46,264 nucleotides of DNA from an uncultured Candidatus Saccharibacteria bacterium. GTDB taxonomy: Bacteria; Patescibacteriota; WWE3; UBA101185; UBA10185. The stretch lies in assembly GCA_964605725.1 (NCBI GenBank), contig CAZSDQ010000003.1:1-46264 (forward strand), read 5' to 3'. How positions within the stretch are numbered: position 1 is the stretch's first letter; every line of letters begins with the position of its first letter. The notes beneath the pieces were generated by a model that was not told the origin of the DNA, did no database searches, and worked only from the letters and a program-made list of their open reading frames with translations. Position numbers and translations under genes: made by a program. Positions 3,057-46,264 of this stretch are shown here, piece by piece.

Positions 3057-5324
3057 ATGCAATACCTGAATAAATTTTTAGAATTTGTTGAATTTACAGG
3101 AAATTCTATACTTTATGTTTTAAAATTACTTTTAGCACTATTAAAAAATATTTTTTCCTCTTTATTTATTAGAAGTAAAAAAGTTCCAAAAGAATATCAG
3201 GATAAACATAAAAAACCTCGGCTCTTTACATTTTTTGTTTTTATAAAAGACACAATAATATCGGTAATCTTTTGGATATTCAGATTGATTAAAGATATAG
3301 TCCTTTTTCCAAAAAAAATATTTACCTACCTTTTTTTAAGAAAGTCTTTTCTGTCTGGAATTTTATTTGCAATTTTTTTTATTTTCTTACCAATTACCAT
3401 TATTAGATGGTTTAAAGAATTACCCTCTCCGGAATCTTTGGTAATTGAGGCAAACAAAAAATCGACTGTAATTTTGGATAGAAATGGAAAACTAATGTAC
3501 GAGATTTACGTTGATAAAAATTATCACCCTGTAAATTTTGAAGAGATTCCTGAGTATGTTAAAAACGCTACATTAGCAGTTGAAGATGATAAATTTTACA
3601 GCCATTTTGGTATACGTTTTGATAGTGTAATCAGGGCAATTAAAAATAATTTATCAAAAGAGAATGGTTTACAAGGTGGTTCTACGATAACCCAACAGTT
3701 AGTGAAAAATGTACTTCTCACTCCTGAAAGAACTTTTTCCAGAAAGATTAAGGAGGCCGTTTTGGCTGTTTTGGTTGAAGCAAGATATTCAAAAAAAGAT
3801 ATATTTGAAATGTATTTGAACAACATTCCTTACGGCGGAACAGCGTGGGGAGTACAAACCGCCTCCAAAAAATATTTTAATAAAGATGTGTGGGAATTAT
3901 CCTTAGCAGAAGCTTCTTTGCTCGCAGGACTTCCTACCGCACCCACAAGTTACTCACCTGCCACAGACCTTGAAACTGCAAAATCAAGACAGAGGTTTGT
4001 TTTGGAGAGAATGCTTAATTTAGGATACATAAATAAAGAAGAGTTTAACAAAGCTATCTCCGAAGAACTAGTTTTTGCTGATACCGATGGATATATCCGG
4101 GCACCCCATTTTGTTGATTATATTAGAAAAGATTTAGAAAAAAGATATGGAAGAAGATATGTAGAGTTCGGCGGTCTTACTGTGACCACTACTTTGGATC
4201 TCGATATTCAAGATAAAGTTCAGTCGATAGTAACTGAAGAAGTAAATAAAAATTCATATTTAGGATTCTCTAACGGTGCTTCCGTAGTTATGGATGTTAA
4301 AAATGCGGAGGTTTTGGCGTATGTTGGTTCTATAGATTATTTTAAAGAAGGTTGGGGAGCTTATGATGTAGTTACTGCAATGAGACAACCAGGTTCTTCA
4401 ATAAAACCTGTAACTTACGGATTAGCTTTATCAGGTAGTTTTACTCCAGCTTCAATTATCGATGACTCTCCAGTTACATATAAATTTAAAGGATCTAAAG
4501 ATTACACTCCGGTTAATTATGATGGACAGTATCACGGAAAAGTTACGTTAAGACAAGCTTTAGCAAATTCATACAATATTCCTGCTGTAAAAGTAGCCAA
4601 TGTTGTTGGGGTTGATAATATTGTTTTAAAAGGAAGGGAGATGGGTCTTACCAATTGGGAGGTAGACGGATCTTACGGACTTTCGATAACGCTCGGGGGA
4701 AAGGAAGTGAGATTGTTAGACCATACGAATGTTTATGCAACTTTAGCTCGTCAAGGTGTTTATAAAGAACCGGAGGTCTACATAAGTATAAAAGATTCTA
4801 ATGGATATGATATCTACGAAAATGAAAATACTAAAAAAACAGTATTATCTCCCGAAGTTTCTTATTTATTGTGGGATATTTTATCTGATCAAAACGCCCG
4901 ACTCCCGGCTTTCGGTGTTAATAATTTCCTTTCAATTCCCGGACATAAGATTGCTGTAAAAACAGGCACAACCAATAACATTAAAGATAACTGGACATTA
5001 GGTTACACCCCGTCTTATGTAGTGGGAGTTTGGGTAGGTAATAATGACGGTACTCCGATGAGGCAAGGTTTGGCCTCCGGTCTTTCAGGAGCTGCTCCGA
5101 TTTGGAATAAGATAATGACAGAAATGTTAAAAGAAAAGCCAAATGAATTATATGAAAGACCTGCTAATGTGTTTGTAAAAAAAGATGACAGGTGTGGAAT
5201 TTCGGAAGTATTTATTAAAGGGACTATGATTCCTAGCAGTCTCTGTCCGGAGAAAGAGAAGGAGAAAGAGAAGGAAAATGATAAGGATGGAGGAAAGAAT
5301 AAGAAAGATAGAGATCGGGACTAA
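3057..5324 (+). CDS. Class A bifunctional penicillin-binding protein (GT51 transglycosylase plus transpeptidase, PBP1A family)
   Basis: GT51 motifs EDDKFYSHFG, GGSTITQQLVKN, RKIKE; transpeptidase motifs SxxK (GSSIKP), SxN (SYN), KTG; N-terminal membrane anchor; KE-rich tail. Confidence 0.95.
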   Translation: MQYLNKFLEFVEFTGNSILYVLKLLLALLKNIFSSLFIRSKKVPKEYQDKHKKPRLFTFFVFIKDTIISVIFWIFRLIKDIVLFPKKIFTYLFLRKSFLSGILFAIFFIFLPITIIRWFKELPSPESLVIEANKKSTVILDRNGKLMYEIYVDKNYHPVNFEEIPEYVKNATLAVEDDKFYSHFGIRFDSVIRAIKNNLSKENGLQGGSTITQQLVKNVLLTPERTFSRKIKEAVLAVLVEARYSKKDIFEMYLNNIPYGGTAWGVQTASKKYFNKDVWELSLAEASLLAGLPTAPTSYSPATDLETAKSRQRFVLERMLNLGYINKEEFNKAISEELVFADTDGYIRAPHFVDYIRKDLEKRYGRRYVEFGGLTVTTTLDLDIQDKVQSIVTEEVNKNSYLGFSNGASVVMDVKNAEVLAYVGSIDYFKEGWGAYDVVTAMRQPGSSIKPVTYGLALSGSFTPASIIDDSPVTYKFKGSKDYTPVNYDGQYHGKVTLRQALANSYNIPAVKVANVVGVDNIVLKGREMGLTNWEVDGSYGLSITLGGKEVRLLDHTNVYATLARQGVYKEPEVYISIKDSNGYDIYENENTKKTVLSPEVSYLLWDILSDQNARLPAFGVNNFLSIPGHKIAVKTGTTNNIKDNWTLGYTPSYVVGVWVGNNDGTPMRQGLASGLSGAAPIWNKIMTEMLKEKPNELYERPANVFVKKDDRCGISEVFIKGTMIPSSLCPEKEKEKEKENDKDGGKNKKDRDRD

Positions 5325-5422
5325 ACTGATTTTCAAGTATTTTAAAATTATATTAGTAAATTTTTAAACCCAAATAAAACCCGTAGACATAAACTACCTT
5401 TATCTTGTACAATGTTTACGTT

Positions 5423-8422
5423 ATGAAAGATTCAATTTCACACATTCTAGTTAGAGGTGCCCGTCAACATAATCTAAAAAATGTTGATTTAGATATCCCT
5501 AAAAATAAAATGGTTATTTTTACAGGTGTTTCCGGATCAGGAAAATCCTCTTTGGCAATGGATACTATTTACGCTGAAGGTCAGAGAAGATATGTGGAGA
5601 GTCTGTCCGCGTATGCCAGACAGTTTTTAGGAGTTATGGATAAACCTGATGTAGATAAAATTGAAGGTTTATCTCCCGCTATTGCCATAGATCAAAAAAC
5701 AACAAGTAAAAATCCCAGATCTACTGTTGGAACCATAACCGAGGTTTACGATTTTTTAAGACTTTTATACGCAAGAGTGGGACACCCACACTGTCCGGAA
5801 TGCGGAAGAGAAATAGAACGCCAATCTTCTCAAGAAATTGTTCAAAATATATTTGAAATTATTAAAAACGAACCTGAATTTAAAAGTGAAAGAGGAGTTC
5901 GTTTCATAATATTTTCACCTGTGGTAAAAGACAGGAAAGGAGAGTTTTCATCTTTATTTGAAAATCTAAAGAAACAGGCAGTTCTAAGAGCAAGAGTCGA
6001 TGGAACAATCAGAGAACTTTCTGACGATTTTAATTTAATAAAAACTAATAAACACAGTATAGACGCACTTATATCCAGACACACTATTAATCAGAAAAAG
6101 ATTAGAAATGAAGAAGATAGGAAAGAAATTGAATCCGAAATATATCAGTCTGTAGAAACTGCCTTAAGAATTAGTTCAGGAAATGCTGTTTTAACAATAG
6201 TAAAAGATGAATCTTTTGATTTTTCTCAAAACCCAAAGAAATTTGAGGACCATCTATTTTCTGAAAATTTCGCTTGTCCTGTTTGTAATATATCATTACC
6301 GGAGCTAGAGCCTAGAACTTTTTCATTTAACACTCCTTACGGAGCTTGTCCTGCCTGCGACGGTATAGGGAGTCAATTAAAAGTTGATCCTGATTTAGTT
6401 ATAAACCCAAGATTGTCAATATCAGAAGGTGGTGTTCTACCTTGGACGAGACTTTTTGAACACATTTCCTGGACATCAAAAGTTGTTAAATCAGTAGCAG
6501 ATTACTACGATTTTTCAGTTGATACACCTATTGGGGAGTTAAGTAAGGAAGCGAGAGATATATTATTTTACGGCGCAGATGGTAAGAAATTTAAAGTAAC
6601 TTACAGCAGTCAGGAAGGTTCAAAGAGAACATTTGACGCAAATTACGAGGGAATTATTCCTAATTTATCAAGAAGATACAGAGAATCGGAGTCAGATTTT
6701 GTAAAGAACGAAATTGAAAAATACATGGTTAAAGAAAAATGCCCAGTTTGTTTAGGAGCAAGATTAAGAAAAGAGTCCTTATCAGTTACTTTAGGGAAGA
6801 AAAATATTGACGAGATAGTACAAATGCCGGTGAATAAACTTCAGGATTGGTTTAAAGACTTATCGGATAAACTAAATTCCCGAGAAAAAGATATTTCATC
6901 GACGATATTAAAAGAAATTAACTACAGATTAAAATTTTTAGTTGATGTCGGGCTCGGGTATTTAACTTTAGGAAGAGCGTCGGCAGAATTATCGGGAGGC
7001 GAAGCACAAAGAATAAGATTAGCTTCACAGATAGGTTCGGGCCTAAGTGGTGTTCTCTATGTTTTAGACGAACCTTCCTTAGGATTACATCAAGTTGACC
7101 AGGGAAAGTTAATTAAAACCCTTAAACAGTTAAGAGATCTTGGAAATACAGTACTTGTTGTTGAGCACGATGCAGAGACAATTTTGGAAAGTGATTATGT
7201 TTTTGACTTTGGTCCCGGAGCGGGGGAACACGGTGGCAAGGTAGTTTCAGAGGGAACACCGGATCAAATTAAAAAAGATAAAAATTCACTTACTGGAAGG
7301 TACCTATCAGGAGATTTAATTGTTGGTAAGAATCCTATTAAAGGTAAAAGAACGTTTGAGGATATTTTGGAAGAAGAATCAAGAAGCAAATTAAATAAAA
7401 AAGTTGAGGGTAAGAGTTTAATGTTAAAAGGAGCGAAAGGAAGAAATCTTAAAAATATTGATTTAAATATTCCACTCGGTAAGTTTATATGCGTAACCGG
7501 AGTTTCAGGTTCTGGTAAGTCTACTTTGATAATGGACACTTTGTATCAAGGATTACGACAAGAATTTGGTTTGAAAATTGAAGAAAAGCCGGAGCCCTTT
7601 GAGTATATAAAAGGTGTTGAAAATATTTCTAATGTTATTGCTATAGACCAGAGTCCAATTGGGAGAACCCCAAAATCCAATCCGGCCACGTATACAAAAG
7701 TTTTTGATCATATTAGAGATTTGTATGCCCAAACTCAGGAAGCAAAAATCAGAGGATACAATCAGGGAAGATTTAGTTTTAATGTTAAAGGCGGGAGGTG
7801 TGAAGCCTGTGGAGGTGAGGGACAGATAAAAATTGAAATGCAGTTTATGCCTGACGTCTACGTTAGATGCGACGTTTGTAAGGGCAAGAGATACAATTCC
7901 GAGGCTTTAGAGATAGAATATAAAGGGAAAAATATATCAGATGTTTTGAATATGACCGTTGAAGAGGCAGTGTCATTTTTTGAAAATTTACCGCAAATCA
8001 GACGTAAGTTAGAAACTCTGTATGACGTGGGTCTTGGATATATTAAACTTGGACAGCCCGCAACTACGTTGTCAGGAGGGGAAGCGCAGAGAGTTAAACT
8101 TGCACTTGAGTTATCAAAACGTTCCACCGGAAGCACGCTATATATTTTAGATGAGCCAACCACCGGGCTTCATTTTGCTGACCTTGAGAATCTCATTTCC
8201 ATATGTAAACGTTTAACCGCCCGAGGTAACACCGTTCTTATGATTGAACATAATTTAGATATGATAAAAAACTGTGATTGGGTTATAGACTTAGGTCCGG
8301 AAGGAGGAGATAGTGGGGGAGAGATACTGTTCGAGGGAAACCTCGAGGGCATTAAGAAATGTAAAAAATCTTATACCGCTGACTCACTCAGATTGATTGA
8401 TAAGTATTACAAATCGAATTAG
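5423..8422 (+). CDS. uvrA: Excinuclease ABC subunit A
   Basis: Two ABC ATPase modules (GVSGSGKS twice, LSGGEAQR twice), CxxC zinc fingers. ATG at 5423 preferred over the track's TTG at 5405 because homology begins at ILVRGARQHNLKN. Confidence 0.98.
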   Translation: MKDSISHILVRGARQHNLKNVDLDIPKNKMVIFTGVSGSGKSSLAMDTIYAEGQRRYVESLSAYARQFLGVMDKPDVDKIEGLSPAIAIDQKTTSKNPRSTVGTITEVYDFLRLLYARVGHPHCPECGREIERQSSQEIVQNIFEIIKNEPEFKSERGVRFIIFSPVVKDRKGEFSSLFENLKKQAVLRARVDGTIRELSDDFNLIKTNKHSIDALISRHTINQKKIRNEEDRKEIESEIYQSVETALRISSGNAVLTIVKDESFDFSQNPKKFEDHLFSENFACPVCNISLPELEPRTFSFNTPYGACPACDGIGSQLKVDPDLVINPRLSISEGGVLPWTRLFEHISWTSKVVKSVADYYDFSVDTPIGELSKEARDILFYGADGKKFKVTYSSQEGSKRTFDANYEGIIPNLSRRYRESESDFVKNEIEKYMVKEKCPVCLGARLRKESLSVTLGKKNIDEIVQMPVNKLQDWFKDLSDKLNSREKDISSTILKEINYRLKFLVDVGLGYLTLGRASAELSGGEAQRIRLASQIGSGLSGVLYVLDEPSLGLHQVDQGKLIKTLKQLRDLGNTVLVVEHDAETILESDYVFDFGPGAGEHGGKVVSEGTPDQIKKDKNSLTGRYLSGDLIVGKNPIKGKRTFEDILEEESRSKLNKKVEGKSLMLKGAKGRNLKNIDLNIPLGKFICVTGVSGSGKSTLIMDTLYQGLRQEFGLKIEEKPEPFEYIKGVENISNVIAIDQSPIGRTPKSNPATYTKVFDHIRDLYAQTQEAKIRGYNQGRFSFNVKGGRCEACGGEGQIKIEMQFMPDVYVRCDVCKGKRYNSEALEIEYKGKNISDVLNMTVEEAVSFFENLPQIRRKLETLYDVGLGYIKLGQPATTLSGGEAQRVKLALELSKRSTGSTLYILDEPTTGLHFADLENLISICKRLTARGNTVLMIEHNLDMIKNCDWVIDLGPEGGDSGGEILFEGNLEGIKKCKKSYTADSLRLIDKYYKSN

Positions 8423-8423
8423 T

Positions 8424-10157
8424 TTACTTTTCAATTTCAGTTTCAAATTCGTTTCCTATGAAATCTTTGAAGACTACCCTATCGTTTTCTTTTTTAATGT
8501 TGGTATATCTCTTTTCTCGGGGAAGAATATTTAAACCGTTTATGTCATATGCAGTTACTTTTCCAGTATTTTCTAGCTTTATTCTACTTTTCCCAGATAA
8601 TATTACGAGTGGGTTAAGATTAAGAACCTTATTAGCTTTTACTGATGGCTTAAAATTTTCATCAGAGCTTGTCTGAGATAAGGCCGTTTCTATTAACTTT
8701 TCATTGTCAGAATATCTATATGTACCTGCTGAGAATGGGTGTTCAGAACTTATTCCTTTTCTAACAAAAGCAAAATGATTAGTATCTAATTTTGAAAAAT
8801 AATCTAGTCCCGATGTAGTACCCCATGTAGGATCAACTTGAACCCAGCCATTGTATGGATCGTAGAATTCAGCCCATGAGTGCAATGTATCCCCACTTTC
8901 CAAACTGATTGAGATCGGTTTATTAGATTCTTCGGATGTGAAAGCATACCCATTAATTTCTCTGGCGGGTATTCCCATTGCTCTTGTCACAGCTATAAAA
9001 AGATCAGTAAACTCCATACAGGTCCATGAATTTTTTTGGGATGCCGCTGCTTCGGCACCTTTTCTTTCAACCATACCTTTACTCTGTGCATCAAAATCAT
9101 ACTTTAAATTATTTTTTATAAATTCATATACCATTTTTGCGTTATAAACTACAGTTTGATCATCTTTTTTAAGTTCCCTTGCAATTTTTAAAATATAAGG
9201 TGATTTGGTTTCCCAATATTTTTGCTGTCTTGTGTAATTTTTTATAAGGACTTTAGGAATTTCAGATATTATTCCTCCCGAGTTTACATTAATCTGTTTA
9301 CTTAAAATTCTTGATGTTCCTTGTACCTCAATTTCTGTTTTTTGCTTTGGTTTTAGTATGTAATAAGCAACAAAATTATTATCTTCATCGTATTCTATTT
9401 TAAAAGGTCTTGGACTTATTTTATCGTAGCTGACGTTTTGGTAGTGCTCGATATCAGAAGGTATAGCTATTTTCTTAATCGCCGGAAGTATTGAGTCATT
9501 TTGAATTTGGTATTTTATTTTAAAGTTAACAGGCTGAAAACCTCCGAAGGCGGCACTGATGCCGGTTGATTCGAAGGTATTTTTAGTAAAATAAAATATG
9601 TTCTTACCATCCTCTTTTTTTTCGATTGTCGGTTCTGGAGTCAAAAATACTTTCGGTCCAAAAGATTCCGGAACTGACAATTTAACATCGTAAGCTGTCG
9701 TCTCATCAGGTATTTGAATTTTTGGAATGTAGATATTCCAAATACTGCCTGATTTTACTGCTACACTTTTTGATTTATATTTTATGGTAATTGTATTCTG
9801 TCTTCCTTCTCCGATTGAGTAATCTTTAATGGTTACAGTTATGTCAGTGTTATTTTTATTATTATTTAATTTAGGCTCTGTTTCTTTCCCATTGGTTTCA
9901 GCGGATACTTCGTATATATTTGAATCCATTGCTGATAATGAGTAATTCATTGGTATGACATCGTTTTGTAAGTTTGTTATTGTCGCGTTATGGATAATAT
10001 TTGCTTCCCCTGACTCATCAATAATATACTCAGATTTATAGTCAATCATAAACTGACTTGCTTCGACTTTAAAAATTACACCGGATGTAATAAAAATGTT
10101 GGTGAGTATAAAAACCGAAACTAGTGTTCTAACTATGTTTTTAAAACAAGTATTCAT
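8424..10157 (-). CDS. Secreted transglutaminase-like (papain-fold Cys-His-Asp) protein
   Basis: WTCMEFTDLFIAVTRAMGIPAR (Cys), HSWAEFY (His), WVQVDPTWG (Asp); signal-peptide-like N-terminus from ATG 10157. Confidence 0.85.
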   Translation of the reverse strand: MNTCFKNIVRTLVSVFILTNIFITSGVIFKVEASQFMIDYKSEYIIDESGEANIIHNATITNLQNDVIPMNYSLSAMDSNIYEVSAETNGKETEPKLNNNKNNTDITVTIKDYSIGEGRQNTITIKYKSKSVAVKSGSIWNIYIPKIQIPDETTAYDVKLSVPESFGPKVFLTPEPTIEKKEDGKNIFYFTKNTFESTGISAAFGGFQPVNFKIKYQIQNDSILPAIKKIAIPSDIEHYQNVSYDKISPRPFKIEYDEDNNFVAYYILKPKQKTEIEVQGTSRILSKQINVNSGGIISEIPKVLIKNYTRQQKYWETKSPYILKIARELKKDDQTVVYNAKMVYEFIKNNLKYDFDAQSKGMVERKGAEAAASQKNSWTCMEFTDLFIAVTRAMGIPAREINGYAFTSEESNKPISISLESGDTLHSWAEFYDPYNGWVQVDPTWGTTSGLDYFSKLDTNHFAFVRKGISSEHPFSAGTYRYSDNEKLIETALSQTSSDENFKPSVKANKVLNLNPLVILSGKSRIKLENTGKVTAYDINGLNILPREKRYTNIKKENDRVVFKDFIGNEFETEIEK

Positions 10158-10180
10158 CCTCCAAATGCTACAATAACTAT

Positions 10181-11533
10181 GTGAAAACCTCAAATATTAG
10201 TCAAAAAGTTGAAAGTTTACCCCAAACGCCCGGTTCATATATTTTTAAAGATGCCGGTGGAAAGGTTATCTATGTTGGGAAAGCAAAAAATCTCAAGTCC
10301 CGTGTTAAATCATATTTTTCCGTAAGTATTCCTTCGGATTTTAAAACGGCGGAGTTAGTTAGTAAGATTAACGACCTCGAATTTATAAAAGTAGGTTCTG
10401 AATTTGAAGCCTTAATATTAGAAGCAGAATTGATAAAAAAATACAGGCCTAAGTACAACATTGTTTTAAAAGATGATAAATCAAGAATTTATATAGTTAT
10501 CAGGGATGATATTATTTCAATTTTGGGAAAAAAATATAAATTACCTAAGGTAATTACCGCACGTAAACCTGATTTAAGAGATTCTGACATAGTATTTGGG
10601 CCTTATCCTAACAATGTAGTTGTCAGAAAAATTCTTACAACATCAAGAAAAATATTTCCTTTTAGAGATTGTAACTACACTAAATTTGCCAAATACAGAA
10701 AGATTGGCTCTCCTTGTTTATATGGTCATATGGGAATTTGTCCTTCTCCTTGTTTAGTAAGCGAACCATCGGATTTGTCTAGTTACAAAAAGAACATTTT
10801 CGGTTTGAAAAAAATTTTATCCGGTAACGCGACCGGTCTAATAAAAAATATAAAAAGGAAAATGCAGATATATTCCCAAAATGAAAAATTTGAAGAAGCA
10901 GCAGTTTATAGAGATTTACTGGATAAATTTTATTTTGTACAAAAAACATTTAGAGAAGCGGAAGAGTATATTAACAATCCTTATTTAATTGATGATATAA
11001 ATAAAAAGTCTTTGGAGGAAATTAAAGATTTTTTGCCGTTTTTAAAAAATTTACCTCGAAGAATAGAGTGTTACGATATTTCAAATATATCCGGTAAAGA
11101 GGCCGTTGGTTCTATGGTAGTTTCAATAAACGGAAGTATTGATAAATCAGAGTACAAAAGATTTAAAATAAAATTTAAAAAAACACCCGATGATTTCGGT
11201 ATGATGTACGAGGTTTTATATAGAAGATTAAAAAGAGAGTTGCCGGGAAGTGACGTAAAAAGCTGGGGGCTTCCCGACCTCATTGTTGTAGACGGAGGTA
11301 AACCGCAGGTCTCCTCTGCTTCTGATGTTTTAAGAGATTTAGAGATATTAGTTCCGGTTGTAGGTATTGCAAAAAAATACGAGACTTTAGTTTATAAAGA
11401 AGGTAAGGATTTTATAGAAAAAACATTTCCTAAAGACAGTTTAGGAATGAAATTAATTATAAAATTAAGAGACGAATCCCACAGATTTGCTCAAAGTTAT
11501 CACCACCTACTAAGAAAAAGATCACTACTATAG
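10181..11533 (+). CDS. uvrC: Excinuclease ABC subunit C, short form without C-terminal HhH
   Basis: GIY-YIG domain (GSYIF..IYVGKAKNLKSRVKSYF), Cys cluster, UVR coil, RNase H-like domain (IECYDISN, DLIVVDGG, RDESHRFA). Confidence 0.93.
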   Translation: MKTSNISQKVESLPQTPGSYIFKDAGGKVIYVGKAKNLKSRVKSYFSVSIPSDFKTAELVSKINDLEFIKVGSEFEALILEAELIKKYRPKYNIVLKDDKSRIYIVIRDDIISILGKKYKLPKVITARKPDLRDSDIVFGPYPNNVVVRKILTTSRKIFPFRDCNYTKFAKYRKIGSPCLYGHMGICPSPCLVSEPSDLSSYKKNIFGLKKILSGNATGLIKNIKRKMQIYSQNEKFEEAAVYRDLLDKFYFVQKTFREAEEYINNPYLIDDINKKSLEEIKDFLPFLKNLPRRIECYDISNISGKEAVGSMVVSINGSIDKSEYKRFKIKFKKTPDDFGMMYEVLYRRLKRELPGSDVKSWGLPDLIVVDGGKPQVSSASDVLRDLEILVPVVGIAKKYETLVYKEGKDFIEKTFPKDSLGMKLIIKLRDESHRFAQSYHHLLRKRSLL

Positions 11534-29690: not shown

Positions 29691-29925
29691 ATTAACGATT
29701 TGAGCTAAAGAAAGGATTCGAATGCCGCAACCGCGACGGCGGTGAGGCGGGGTCGACTGGCGCATCAGCAGATGCGAACAGGTGACCGAATCCTGACGGG
29801 CCCACCAATTAACGATTTGAGCTAAAGAAAGGATTCGAATGCCGCAACCGCGACGGCGGTGAGGCGGGGTCGACTGGCGCATCAGCAGATGCGAACAGGT
29901 GACCGAATCCTGACGGGCCCACCAA
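29671..29925 (+). repeat. Tandem 117-bp repeat (about 2.2 copies): last 20 nt of tRNA-Val plus a 97-nt GC-rich structured spacer
   Basis: GAATCCTGACGGGCCCACCA at 29671, 29788 and 29905; the two 97-nt spacers are identical. Confidence 0.95.
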
Positions 29926-39877: not shown

Positions 39878-39919
39878 TGGAGCCGAAGGTGGGAATTGGG
39901 AACTCAGCCTAACGTTTAC
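39878..39919 (-). pseudogene. 3' half (42 nt) of a split tRNA-Thr, with a damaged T arm
   Basis: GTAA-ACGTT-AGGCT-GAGTTCCCAATTCCCAC-CTTCGGC-T-CCA; complementary to the 5' half at 40317-40349. Confidence 0.85.
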
Positions 39920-40149
39920 TATTTTGTTTCTAAAATAGATATTCTTTTATCGTGATTATCTATTTTTTCTTTGTTCATCTTATACATATCTCCGTAAAAA
40001 CCTATTGTATTTTCTAAAGAAATTAGTGATGCTGTGTGATTGTCTAGTTTTGAATAAACCTCGTTAAAATTTTCATTTGTTTCATTTCTGAAATCTCTGA
40101 ATTCTTTTTGAAGATTAATTATCAAACCTGATAAATTTTCATTAGGCAT
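39919..40149 (-). CDS. 76-aa coiled-coil hypothetical protein inside the split tRNA
   Basis: Open frame with heptad-like pattern; TAATAT 6 nt before the ATG; its TAG stop overlaps the first base of the tRNA 3' half. Confidence 0.7.
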   Translation of the reverse strand: MPNENLSGLIINLQKEFRDFRNETNENFNEVYSKLDNHTASLISLENTIGFYGDMYKMNKEKIDNHDKRISILETK

Positions 40150-40218: not shown

Positions 40219-40293
40219 TGGAGCCGGTGGTCAGAATCGAACTGACAACCTAACGCTTACGATGCGCTTGCTCTACCATTGAGCTACACCGGC
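40219..40293 (-). tRNA. tRNA-Thr(CGT)
   Basis: GCCGGTG/CACCGGC acceptor, GCTC/GAGC, AGCGC/GCGTT with loop AT-CGT-AA, GTCAG-TTCGATT-CTGAC, U73 and CCA. Confidence 0.95.
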
Positions 40294-40316
40294 AAAAGAT
40301 ACTGGCCGCAGCGTCT

Positions 40317-40349
40317 GATACGCTTGCTCTACCATTTAGCCACTTCGGC
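40317..40349 (-). pseudogene. 5' half (33 nt) of a split tRNA-Thr
   Basis: GCCGAAG-TG-GCTA-AATGGTA-GAGC-A-AGCGT-ATC; ends at anticodon position 34. Confidence 0.85.
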
Positions 40350-40416
40350 GTATAAAAATAAACTTTCGTTTAATATCTTACCTTGGCGATCAAAATAATT
40401 CTAAATTTATTAATAA

Positions 40417-40475
40417 GCTCAATCGCAAGGTTCTCGAGCGAAGCGAGATGGTTCTTCCCATTGAGCCACTATGGC
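40417..40475 (-). other. tRNA 5'-end fragment extended into a GC-rich hairpin element
   Basis: GCCATAG-TG-GCTCAATGG, then TCTCG-CTTCGCT-CGAGA, closed by ATTGAGC pairing with GCTCAAT. Confidence 0.7.
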
Positions 40476-40515
40476 AGATAAAATTTCGACTATTAAAACC
40501 TAATATATCTTTATT

Positions 40516-44529: not shown

Positions 44530-44679
44530 TTTTACTCCTTTTCTATTAGTAGGTTAAAGTTATGAAACATCGTACAATTATTGCATCGATATTTCAATGG
44601 GGGTATGGAAATATTTGATGGGGATTTGTAAAGTATTTATATTTGTGAAAACAGCGAAGAATATTTAGAGTGGGAGATT

Positions 44680-44723
44680 CTATCGGAACTTTGAACTTCT
44701 GGAGACCCAGTCGAGTCTAGGAA
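44680..44723. repeat. Repeat copy A (left arm plus core) of an att-like site
   Basis: 37/44 identical to 46140-46183; abuts the NUDIX stop codon. Confidence 0.85.
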
Positions 44724-45167
44724 TTAAGTTATCAAACCAAGTTCTTTTATCGTAACAGTATCCCGATTAATCAGTCTTTCTATTTGAGATAAATATTTTT
44801 CAAAATACATTTTCGATGGTGGAGTCAGATCGAGCTTTTGTATTTCATCTAATGTAAAAAAATTTAGTGCTTGTCCTTCATTTCCAAGTTTTATTTCTTT
44901 TACTTCCTCATCTGTTAAATATGAGATGTAAATTCCTATTATGTGACCTTTATTGATAATTTTTCCGTAATATTTAATACTTGATGGGGATAGACCTGCT
45001 TCTTCTTTAATCTCTCTTTTTATAGCCATATCAAAAGACTCTCCTTCCTCTACATAACCACCAATCGTTTGCCATTTATTTGGGTCAGTTATTTCGGAAA
45101 TATTGTCCCTTAAAAGAAGTAGCACCTTTTCTTTATATATGATTAATGAAGAAACTGTTTTTTTCAT
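44724..45167 (-). CDS. NUDIX hydrolase
   Basis: Nudix box GYVEEGESFDMAIKREIKEEAGL (GX5EX7REUXEEXGU). ATG 45167 preferred because the track's upstream extension lies inside repeat B. Confidence 0.9.
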   Translation of the reverse strand: MKKTVSSLIIYKEKVLLLLRDNISEITDPNKWQTIGGYVEEGESFDMAIKREIKEEAGLSPSSIKYYGKIINKGHIIGIYISYLTDEEVKEIKLGNEGQALNFFTLDEIQKLDLTPPSKMYFEKYLSQIERLINRDTVTIKELGLIT

Positions 45168-45180
45168 AATAAATTCATTT

Positions 45181-45245
45181 TGGAGCACCAGTCGAGTCTG
45201 GAAACATCAAGTAAAGTACATTCTCTACGCTGTAGACAAGCATAG
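45181..45245. repeat. Repeat copy B (core plus right arm) of an att-like site
   Basis: 53/65 identical to 46160-46224. Confidence 0.85.
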
Positions 45246-45272
45246 TATAAAATGATTAAGAAAAACTTTACC

Positions 45273-46088
45273 TTATTCACTTCTTAAAAAATCTGCTGAT
45301 TTGAAACGTTCTTGATGTAAAGTCCTCAATTCCTCAGGAGTTTTATTCGATTTTATGGCGACTATTTCCATGTTTGTCCTTGGCCAACGAATTTTAGCAT
45401 TAGTTAGAGGGAAGTAGTATCTATATTCAAGTATTTCAAAACCACTATTCTCAAGATCAGAGAAAAATTCTTCTCTTGTAGGTTTACTAACATGAGTCTT
45501 ATCTTTATCCAGATGTTCTCCCCAAAATTTTCCTTCTGTTGTATCAGTAATTGGTGCCCCTACAATTAACAGCCCGCCATCTTTCATCACCCGGGATATT
45601 TCTTGTATTGTGTGAGATCTATCTTTGGTATGTTCGATTATGTCCAAAGCGGTTACACATCCAAAAGTTCCAGATTTATAGGGAAGGTTGTCATCCGCAT
45701 CCAGTTGAACCAATGTGTCGTAAGTTTTACCGTTTTCCTTTAAGGCTTTTTGGGCTCTTTTAAGGGCTGGTTCTATTGATATATCAGCTCCGTAAATATT
45801 AGTGTATGGGGATCTTTTTAAAAGGTGGCCAAAAGCACAACCCAAATCTAAATAGCTATCGTTTTCTAAGTCCTTACCATATTTAAACATAGAGCTAATT
45901 GCACTTTTCCAAAACCCATCGTTGTCGTATGCCATATATCCTTTTGGAACCCTATAATTTTCGTTACTGAAGTATTCTTCATTAAAGAAATTGACTTTGT
46001 CTCCTGAAGAGCTATTTGAATCTGTGGTTTCAGGTTTATCTGGTGGTTGTTCGTTTATGCCACTATTCTCGGAATTTTCTATACTCAT
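45273..46088 (-). CDS. Class I SAM-dependent methyltransferase
   Basis: Motif I YLDLGCAFG, GADIS, LPYKSGTFGCVTALDIIEH, LLIVGAP. Confidence 0.88.
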   Translation of the reverse strand: MSIENSENSGINEQPPDKPETTDSNSSSGDKVNFFNEEYFSNENYRVPKGYMAYDNDGFWKSAISSMFKYGKDLENDSYLDLGCAFGHLLKRSPYTNIYGADISIEPALKRAQKALKENGKTYDTLVQLDADDNLPYKSGTFGCVTALDIIEHTKDRSHTIQEISRVMKDGGLLIVGAPITDTTEGKFWGEHLDKDKTHVSKPTREEFFSDLENSGFEILEYRYYFPLTNAKIRWPRTNMEIVAIKSNKTPEELRTLHQERFKSADFLRSE

Positions 46089-46139
46089 TGTATATAAAGA
46101 TTAACACATTTATTATCTTTAAGTATTATAGAAATAGGT

Positions 46140-46224
46140 CTATCGGAACTTTAAACATCTGGAGCACCATTCGAGTCTGGAAACCCCAAGTGAAGTATAC
46201 TCTCCAGGCTAGAAATAAGCATAG
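46140..46224. repeat. Repeat copy C (complete left arm, core and right arm) of an att-like site
   Basis: Its left part matches copy A, its right part matches copy B, and the core TGGAGCACCA(G/T)TCGAGTCTGGAAA region is shared by all three. Confidence 0.85.
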
Positions 46225-46264
46225 CTTGCATCTTCGTTACACTCAGAAGTGAGACAAATGAGAC

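Follow-up and report, generated by a model that had tools for sequence, protein, structure and literature searches.

The closest described system to the locus analyzed here is the array of genomic islands at ssrA in Dehalococcoides, where tandem islands associated with DsiB, a CcrB-like serine recombinase, are bounded by a repeat of the 3' end of transfer-messenger RNA (tmRNA) (McMurdie et al. 2011, PMC3146451). Dehalococcoides islands without an integration module have been read as mobilizable in cis and as gained by accretion (PMC3146451). Here we describe a tandem array of small gene cassettes behind a tRNA-Gly gene in an uncultured Candidatus Saccharibacteria bacterium of the phylum Patescibacteria. 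The end of the array lies in contig CAZSDQ010000003.1 (assembly GCA_964605725.1, positions 1 to 46,264), and this whole 46-kb stretch is referred to below as the window. Our literature searches found no prior description of such a system in Patescibacteria, and what sets it apart is its scale and modularity, namely, units that often hold a single gene, a core of 24 to 28 bp, portable promoter-like ends, and a host in the candidate phyla radiation. We read the repeats between the cassettes as attachment-type sites of a family of integrative elements of Patescibacteria that targets the 3' end of tRNA-Gly genes, with cassettes lacking a recombinase having been added by accretion, and we give this reading a probability of about 0.65.

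The likeness to the ssrA islands extends to several features. In both systems, the units stand in tandem behind a small stable-RNA gene, a short direct repeat that copies or resembles the end of that gene (3') marks their boundaries, a conserved motif that cannot be aligned to the RNA gene stands beside the repeat, and some units carry no recombinase. The serine recombinase gene on the reverse strand next to attL in the ssrA islands has its counterpart here in related genomes but not in the window or the 10 kb beyond it. The two systems differ in target (tRNA-Gly here versus tmRNA there), in the repeat (a diverged 24- to 28-bp mimic versus an exact 20-bp copy), in the apparent exchange point (the CCA end versus the T-loop), and in unit size (often single-gene units of 0.5 to 1 kb versus multi-kb islands). 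In addition, a portable promoter-like module ends many units here, there is neither a DsiA-like second recombinase nor a six-gene integration module, and the host phylum is different.

Staphylococcal cassette chromosome (SCC/SCCmec) elements use the large serine recombinases CcrAB or CcrC at the 3' end of rlmH/orfX, with units of 3 to 60 kb. They resemble the present system in having a large serine recombinase (here encoded in relatives), one site in the chromosome as target, located where a conserved gene ends (3'), and tandem cassettes set off by short direct repeats; some of these lack the recombinase gene, and such ccr-less units can be mobilized in trans in SCC. In contrast, their target is a protein gene, their units are much larger, and no promoter module has been described for them. 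Transposons of the Tn4451/Tn5397 type, whose large serine recombinases are TnpX/TndX, excise as circles, with exchange at a GA dinucleotide and with a promoter assembled or used across the circle joint. GA is likewise the commonest dinucleotide after CCA in our sites, and the promoter-like module faces the joint, but those transposons have many targets and carry their own recombinase.

The array looks like an integron but fails the integron tests on recombinase and attC sites. Like integrons, it consists of ordered, mostly co-oriented cassettes of unrelated accessory genes, most with a single open reading frame (ORF) followed by its recombination site, with one fixed entry at the array head (eight cassettes in the longer contig of this organism and five in a relative, L016) and a promoter or promoter-like module into the cassettes. 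An attC site is an imperfect palindrome of 55 to 140 bp, conserved in structure rather than in sequence, with RYYYAAC...GTTRRRY ends. The sites described here have a short core conserved in sequence and not as a hairpin, and they fold no better than shuffled sequences. Inspection bore out the view of the initial annotation (a brief reading of the window's letters that preceded this analysis) that the integron ends are absent: GTTTGAA and GTTCAAA do not fit GTTRRRY. Pfam annotation of the window ORFs shows no tyrosine recombinase, IntI or other, and neither do the precomputed Pfam lists for those related loci that were retrieved by protein look-up. Furthermore, a tRNA gene stands at the head of the array, and copies of the promoter-like module recur within it.

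Tyrosine recombinases are the rule in the tycheposons of Prochlorococcus (910 of 937), with a large serine recombinase in a minority of them (Hackl et al., bioRxiv 10.1101/2020.12.28.424599). They too build tRNA-linked islands by repeated integration, newer elements pushing older ones inward (bioRxiv 10.1101/2020.12.28.424599), and partial-tRNA repeats and degenerate remnants are scattered through the island. Unlike the present units, they have tyrosine recombinases and replication modules, true partial-tRNA repeats, and multigene units.

Junction sites and cassettes of the array

Three copies of the repeat, termed A, B, and C, lie at one end of the window. They are read on the minus strand, which is the strand of the cassette genes, and their cores (L) and flanking modules (R and P) are described below. 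In the order of the array, the features are as follows.

46184 to 46264, minus strand: promoter-like arm of copy C (module P, variant P2, which has a 35-nt insert), matching positions 9825 to 9905 of the longer contig L001 at 100%
46160 to 46183, minus strand: core L of copy C, TTTCCAGACTCGAATGGTGCTCCA, preceded by GGGG at 46184 to 46187; found by repeat search, core scan, and profile
46139 to 46159, minus strand: module R of copy C, GATGTTTAAAGTTCCGATAGA, with which the methyltransferase cassette begins on the left
45181 to 46159, minus strand: cassette R-methyltransferase-P-L, junction to junction
45273 to 46088, minus strand: cargo gene for a class I S-adenosylmethionine-dependent methyltransferase of 271 aa (Pfam Methyltransf_23/11/25)
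45205 to 45245, minus strand: degenerate module P of copy B, aligned to L016 and 82% identical to copy C over 65 nt
45181 to 45204, minus strand: core L of copy B, TTTCCAGACTCGACTGGTGCTCCA, followed directly by the NUDIX 5' region without R
44700 to 45180, minus strand: cassette NUDIX-L, without R
44724 to 45167, minus strand: cargo gene for a NUDIX hydrolase of 147 aa (Pfam NUDIX, E value 1e-15)
44700 to 44723, minus strand: core L of copy A, TTCCTAGACTCGACTGGGTCTCCA, with 5 mismatches, beginning right after the NUDIX stop codon
44679 to 44699, minus strand: module R of copy A, GAAGTTCAAAGTTCCGATAGA, at the junction that closes the array, followed by a gene of 417 aa

A repeat search within the window aligned copy A (44679 to 44723) with copy C (46139 to 46183) at 84% identity and copy B (45181 to 45245) with copy C (46160 to 46224) at 82% (53/65). 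The 24-nt core TGGAGCACCAKTCGAGTCTGGAAA has two matches in the window at ≤3 mismatches, with 0 expected in 100 shuffles; copy A, a third copy, is more diverged than B and C. A profile built from 25 related sites of other genomes gave exactly three significant matches in the window (E values of 4e-19, 1e-13, and 9e-9), all within 44670 to 46187. The three copies are real recombination-type junction sites, far beyond chance. The positions and match counts given for them in the initial annotation were confirmed by the repeat search, as were its layout of NUDIX and methyltransferase genes between the repeats (ORFs and Pfam) and its reading of the NUDIX stop codon as abutting the core, which holds at copy A. 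Module P of copy C is truncated by the window edge a few bases in from where it starts, and in P of copy B the -10-like hexamer is damaged (TATACT to TGTACT).

An exact look-up of the methyltransferase retrieved L001, a longer contig of the same organism (L001 position = 10001 + 46088 - window position). There the array runs a further 4.3 kb past the window edge, with six more junctions, up to tRNA-Gly(CCC) at 5559 to 5633 (ARAGORN; 74 bits in Rfam), confirming the suspicion that it might continue beyond the window. With a slash marking each junction, the order in L001 is tRNA-Gly(CCC) / 168-nt GC-rich element / R-Tmk-ThyX-L / partial R-nucleotidyltransferase-L / second GC-rich element / R-DUF5680-L / R R' R''-hydrolase (minus strand)-P-L / R-methyltransferase-P-L / NUDIX-L / R and the 417-aa gene. 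Eight cassettes thus stand in tandem behind the tRNA gene, of which the window holds the last two. The sites are strongly clustered: the profile finds three in the window, all at one end, and nine strong plus two weak sites in 5.6 kb of L001.

Comparison of 46 unique sites from ~30 loci resolves three recurring modules. The core L, (GGGG)TTTCCAGACTCGANTGGTGCTCCA, is 24 to 28 bp long and ends in GCTCCA, as tRNA-Gly does. R starts with GATGTTTGAAGTTCCGAY and can extend over ~190 nt with two further degenerate L/R-like sub-repeats. P (~55 nt, TATACTGTCTCATTTGTCTCATTTCTAGCCTGGAGAGTATACTT) contains, in its P1 form, a sigma-70-like TTGTCT-18-TATACT, preceded in L018 by a terminator-like hairpin, and it lies ahead of 28 of the 46 unique cores in other genomes. 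The sites divide into P-L-R (13), P-L/other sequence (14), gene-L/R (12), gene-L/gene (4), and L/GC-rich element (3). Only L is common to all 46, and similarity to its right always stops exactly after CCA, which is the pattern expected of recombinant junctions. On its right, CCA is followed by R, with which the next cassette begins, and the core is preceded on its left by either a gene end or an outward-facing P. The dinucleotide after CCA is most often GA (G in 29/46 and A in 38/46). Which subtype of R block is present depends on the cargo to the right of it, so that R is the left end of a cassette and not a native tRNA trailer.

In its long form (L001 8669 to 8835; L023 5072 to 5260; L042 12297 to 12459), R is made up of three L/R-type units, tandem and degenerate, at spacings of 37 and ~109 nt, which could be old junction scars carried along or putative accessory binding sites. 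It occurs in two sequence subtypes, each with a particular cargo. The sequence GAAGTTCCGATAG in R resembles an arm of the Flp recombination target FRT; no Flp-like gene was found, and we treat the likeness as coincidence. A short frame, MQAMLISSLESILHLGFPDSNGAPDV or MLVYSVENVLYLMFPDSTGAPK, runs through P-L of copies C and B, respectively (window positions 46130 to 46264 and 45150 to 45275, minus strand). We judge it to be a by-product of conserved DNA, with a small upstream peptide as a less likely alternative.

Other identities of the repeats were tried and rejected. A dispersed repeat, such as a repetitive extragenic palindrome or a miniature inverted-repeat transposable element, does not fit copies that occur only in tRNA-Gly-linked clusters and show no terminal inverted repeats. 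The template and variable repeats of a diversity-generating retroelement (DGR), which came into question because related arrays contain reverse transcriptases, do not fit either, given that the window and L001 hold no reverse transcriptase, that the repeats are intergenic and multicopy, and that the DGRs in L015 and L017 have template and variable repeats of their own. No terminator is predicted at L.

Relatives, variable cargo, and a linked recombinase

In a scan with one genome per species, the exact core occurred in 10 contigs of eight Patescibacteria metagenome-assembled genomes (MAGs), labeled candidate division WWE3, "Patescibacteria group," or Saccharibacteria, with the matches in each MAG confined to one or two contigs. 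A metagenome scan added 21 stretches with the core. Arrays of such sites, differing in their cargo and in its order, are present in no fewer than eight other genomes of Patescibacteria. The clusters usually begin at an intact tRNA-Gly (CCC, GCC, or TCC anticodon), with cassette DNA right after its CCA; the R motif takes this position in L013, L014, L017, L023, L030, L042, L045, L067, and L071. As in an accretion array, L recurs at every boundary of the tandem units, including those without a recombinase, with a likeness to tRNA-Gly that is weak and near generic.

Several comparisons point to exchange of cargo. At the conserved LysM-tRNA-Gly(CCC) locus, its identity and order vary among L001, L013, L017, and L036. 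The NUDIX cassette recurs in L016, which holds its five cassettes within 4 kb, in the same P-L/NUDIX-L/R frame with other neighbors (88% mean column identity in a DNA alignment), and R-DUF5680-L has five different left neighbors among the loci. Different cargo between the same repeats, which the initial annotation had anticipated among strains, is thus found in relatives, whereas within the species of the window the array is invariant.

One pair of near-identical strains of a WWE3 population shows the same site empty and occupied: L074 reads P-L/R, and L075 reads P-L/HD-domain gene-L/R. The insert of 713 bp lies exactly at the L/R junction, with L duplicated at both ends, and the right flanks are 99.8% identical over 903 nt. 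An empty site, whose absence everywhere would have counted against the proposal of the initial annotation, therefore exists. The insert is an R-less gene-L unit, the same kind as the NUDIX cassette of the window. Its left L retains the resident base at the variable position 13 and its right L has the base of the cassette, which places the exchange point 3' of a CCAG-N6-CTGG dyad within L, towards CCA. Partial R blocks with variable end points (L001 7308, L021, L034 4570, and L016 2608) suggest that some R-less junctions may be later deletions, and the HD insertion argues that R-less units insert as such.

Seven distinct large serine recombinases of one clade (81 to 100% identical; domains Resolvase, Recombinase, and Zn_ribbon_recom) are linked to these junctions. 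Each of the seven genes is encoded on the other strand from the tRNA, at a distance of 0.6 to 1.8 kb from an R block. The linked junction is formed by tRNA-Gly in L023/L073, L042, L045, L067, and L071 and by P-L instead in L026/L074. Contig Ga0208040_1000991 (L023 and L026) carries two elements of 6 to 8 kb, each with a recombinase of 435 to 436 aa on the reverse strand 1 to 1.8 kb from the R end. Element 1 reads tRNA-Gly(GCC)/R R' R''...P-L/ and element 2 reads P-L/R R'...P-L/, and a relative, L030, is without both. Among five further members of the clade (81 to 96% identical), tRNA-Gly abuts R in L042, L045, L067, and L071. Some of the recombinase-bearing elements are prophage-like, with ParB-methylase and terminase-like genes, and the MAG to which L071 belongs also contains L019, a locus with a P-L-R site. 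Beside tRNA-Glu stands a sister recombinase (59% identical).

From this linkage, we assign the sites to a large serine recombinase, and an enzyme of this clade probably integrates the elements. The initial annotation had likened the core to that of a tyrosine recombinase, which the type of the linked enzyme contradicts; the recombinase that it left to be sought stands beside the same junctions in relatives but not in the window or in the 10 kb beyond. Contig L045/L046, which carries a recombinase and comes from the same sample, was considered as belonging to the species of the window and rejected, since only its att regions match.

L037 contains two further large serine recombinase genes that are more distantly related (4599 to 6142 and ~9766 to 10800; ~30% identity to the main clade), and one of them, lying on the strand opposite tRNA-Gln, overlaps the 3' end of that gene. 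Such a position suggests that serine recombinases of this phylum commonly target the 3' ends of tRNAs. In the UBA1397 MAG, the second recombinase is annotated as two ORFs (323 and 88 aa) and not as a single one of 435 aa (L073 286 to 1498, compared with L074 191 to 1498), and may be a frameshifted or decaying copy.

The cargo of the related arrays is rich in defense-type and nucleotide-related genes. Examples are a SMODS/Mab-21 cyclase resembling those of cyclic-oligonucleotide-based antiphage signaling systems (CBASS), Mrr-type endonucleases, Fic, a YbaK-type editing domain, HIT, and HD (L019 3727 to 5343; L014 1687 to 2565; L018 7170 to 7694; L016 2088 to 2582). DGRs also ride in these arrays (L017, oriented, 4584 to 7108; L015 2095 to 4257; also L029, L033, L034, and L041), with a reverse transcriptase containing a YADD motif and targets of 165 to 202 aa ending in RFVFVRR; 13 of 18 mismatches between template and variable repeats fall at template adenines.

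Accretion at tRNA-Gly weighed against other explanations

In the accretion reading, DNA would be exchanged at or just after the CCA of L, and a cassette would be the stretch from one exchange point to the next, usually comprising R, one or a few genes, and L. The P module that often precedes L would act as an outward promoter, driving the next cassette or, once the unit is circularized, its own genes. Larger elements, running from tRNA-Gly or L/R to P-L/, carry the serine recombinase near their R end in relatives, and this enzyme would integrate them. The mini-cassettes without a recombinase would then be accreted passengers, either mobilizable in trans or now fossil. The extension in L001, the cargo of relatives, the empty and occupied pair, and the linked recombinase all support the original idea of a non-integron array for cassette capture or shuffling.

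Several observations weigh against this reading. Neither the 46-kb window nor the adjoining 10 kb of L001 contains a recombinase gene, and the order hydrolase-methyltransferase-NUDIX-417-aa gene is identical in ~24 contigs of this species from many samples, so that there is no sign of current activity in it. Look-ups of the methyltransferase, NUDIX, and 417-aa proteins likewise found no strain-level polymorphism. The array in this species looks fixed, being a fossil or else mobilized at most rarely, and then in trans. Circles and excised units were not observed, and on excision and reintegration the single empty and occupied pair and the differing cargo orders bear only indirectly. A search of IMG/VR viral contigs with the core gave no match, a result on which a phage origin was also rejected. 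Against the last 28 nt of tRNA-Gly, L is identical at 16 to 19 of 28 positions, and against other tRNAs at 11 to 18 of 28. L therefore appears only weakly to be a specific mimic of tRNA-Gly, and the firm shared feature is the terminal GCTCCA. The left flanks of L074 and L075 are only 90% identical, so that the HD cassette could have arrived with a larger homologous exchange. Moreover, canonical large serine recombinases recombine attP with attB only. Here, the internal L/R junctions look like intact attP, and the gene-L cassettes (NUDIX and HD) have no R-like right half-site, which implies that the enzyme is permissive, that part of the movement is by homologous recombination through the ~190-nt R blocks, or that another enzyme is involved. 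Ccr enzymes are said to be permissive.

An explanation that dispenses with a dedicated recombinase takes P-L-R to be a conserved promoter and leader (or RNA-processing) module in front of accessory genes, reshuffled by homologous recombination only. The sigma-70-like sequence in P after a terminator-like hairpin, the orientation of the majority of cassette genes away from P, and the fixed array all suit such a module, R blocks of ~190 nt suffice for RecA, and the diverged left flank of the HD insertion is as expected after a larger exchange. However, the sites are only clustered behind tRNA-Gly rather than placed before genes genome-wide, and several lie between convergent genes, where a promoter would be useless (L014 3658, L019 5455, and L020 3499). 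Insertion of a gene-L unit exactly at CCA requires exchange within 24 bp, and the linkage to the recombinase clade is left unexplained. As for a structured RNA, single copies fold no better than shuffles on either strand (z scores of 0.06 to -0.95) and match no Rfam family. We therefore regard the promoter and leader explanation as unlikely. A tyrosine recombinase or a single-strand enzyme of the integron or HUH type, acting on a CCAG-N6-CTGG hairpin in L and exchanging strands in or next to the 6-bp spacer, is quite improbable. The full dyad is present in 31 of the 46 sites, and NUDIX-L and HD-L need only L on the incoming partner, which fits enzymes that read one folded strand. Copy B of the window has the dyad, on which the tyrosine-type reading of the initial annotation was based, but copy C reads CCAT, the fourth pair is broken in 12 of 46 sites with no compensatory change, and the bases at position 13 in the HD insertion put the exchange 3' of the spacer, at the CCA end. 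The RYYYAAC/GTTRRRY signature is missing as well, and no tyrosine recombinase or HUH protein was noted at the loci in a partial annotation (precomputed Pfam for loci retrieved by protein look-up, and Pfam scans of the window ORFs and of ten selected ORFs at loci from the pattern scan).

It is very unlikely that the repeats are inert scars, that is, decayed tRNA or fragments of duplicated coding sequence left by old insertions and without present function. The resemblance of L to a tRNA 3' end, the degenerate copies R' and R'', the fixed array, and a frame (...FPDS[NT]GAP...) that extends across copies B and C and stays open as far as the window edge are what such scars might leave. Yet neither ARAGORN nor Rfam (gathering and E-value thresholds) finds a tRNA or pseudo-tRNA at any copy, and across species L is ≥90% conserved at nearly every position between unrelated flanks, which neutral scars would not be, although exact-pattern ascertainment inflates the figure for one copy per locus. 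No gene is called over copy C in ten independent contigs, and the variable position of L is the second codon position of the frame, so that its variation is not codon-like. A coding remnant was rejected on these grounds, and with it the duplicated coding sequence that the initial annotation had named as the way in which its proposal could fail. The HD case adds a recent insertion at an L/R site.

More tentatively, and with less confidence than we place in accretion itself, the system may be an integron-like capture platform of WWE3-type Patescibacteria built on a large serine recombinase. Single-gene cassettes with a 24- to 28-bp core like a tRNA 3' end would be excised and inserted singly at the CCA of tRNA-Gly or of any resident core, many of them bringing an outward promoter for their neighbor, and the window would hold a recombinase-less, currently silent array. 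If a serine recombinase truly moves single-gene units through such a core, this would be a second, mechanistically independent solution to the integron problem, a simple sequence tag with which to find the flexible gene pool of these uncultured bacteria, and a compact pair of recombinase and site that might serve as a tool. If it does not, the array still adds a clear new case in which site-specific accretion has taken place at a tRNA gene. Members of the candidate phyla radiation have tiny genomes, and their gain of accessory genes is little understood. The site family marks a hot spot behind tRNA-Gly where nucleotide-metabolism, modification, and defense-type genes (NUDIX, HIT, methyltransferase, nucleotidyltransferases, Mrr, Fic, CBASS-like cyclase, and DGRs) are stacked and exchanged as very small units.

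Elements beside other tRNA genes

GC-rich structured elements of 117 to 177 nt stand directly after the CCA of several tRNAs, and each ends in a copy of the last ~21 nt of its own tRNA. Two tandem copies follow tRNA-Val in the window (29691 to 29807 and 29808 to 29924), and others follow tRNA-Gly and tRNA-Asp in relatives; further elements lie at L001 5634 to 5802 and 7933 to 8102 and at L036 87 to 263. The element folds with a z score of -4.25, and in an RNAalifold analysis of seven variants, 15 of the 40 pairs show compensatory changes. The tRNA-like AUCCCGU is paired to an internal ACGGGAU, and the two covary in the Val version. The element has no Rfam match, and its 3' end serves as a second entry point for cassettes.

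The other genes of the window are ordinary chromosomal ones, including LexA, UvrABC, a Mur/Fts cluster, ribonucleotide reductase, and isoleucyl-tRNA synthetase. Just upstream of tRNA-Thr(CGT), which also ends in GCTCCA, two partial tRNA-like 5' fragments lie on the same strand as the tRNA (window 40219 to 40476; L001 15617 to 15870). The gene of 76 aa that follows this tRNA (window 39919 to 40149) is, by eye, homologous to the gene of a bounded cassette in L015 and L032.

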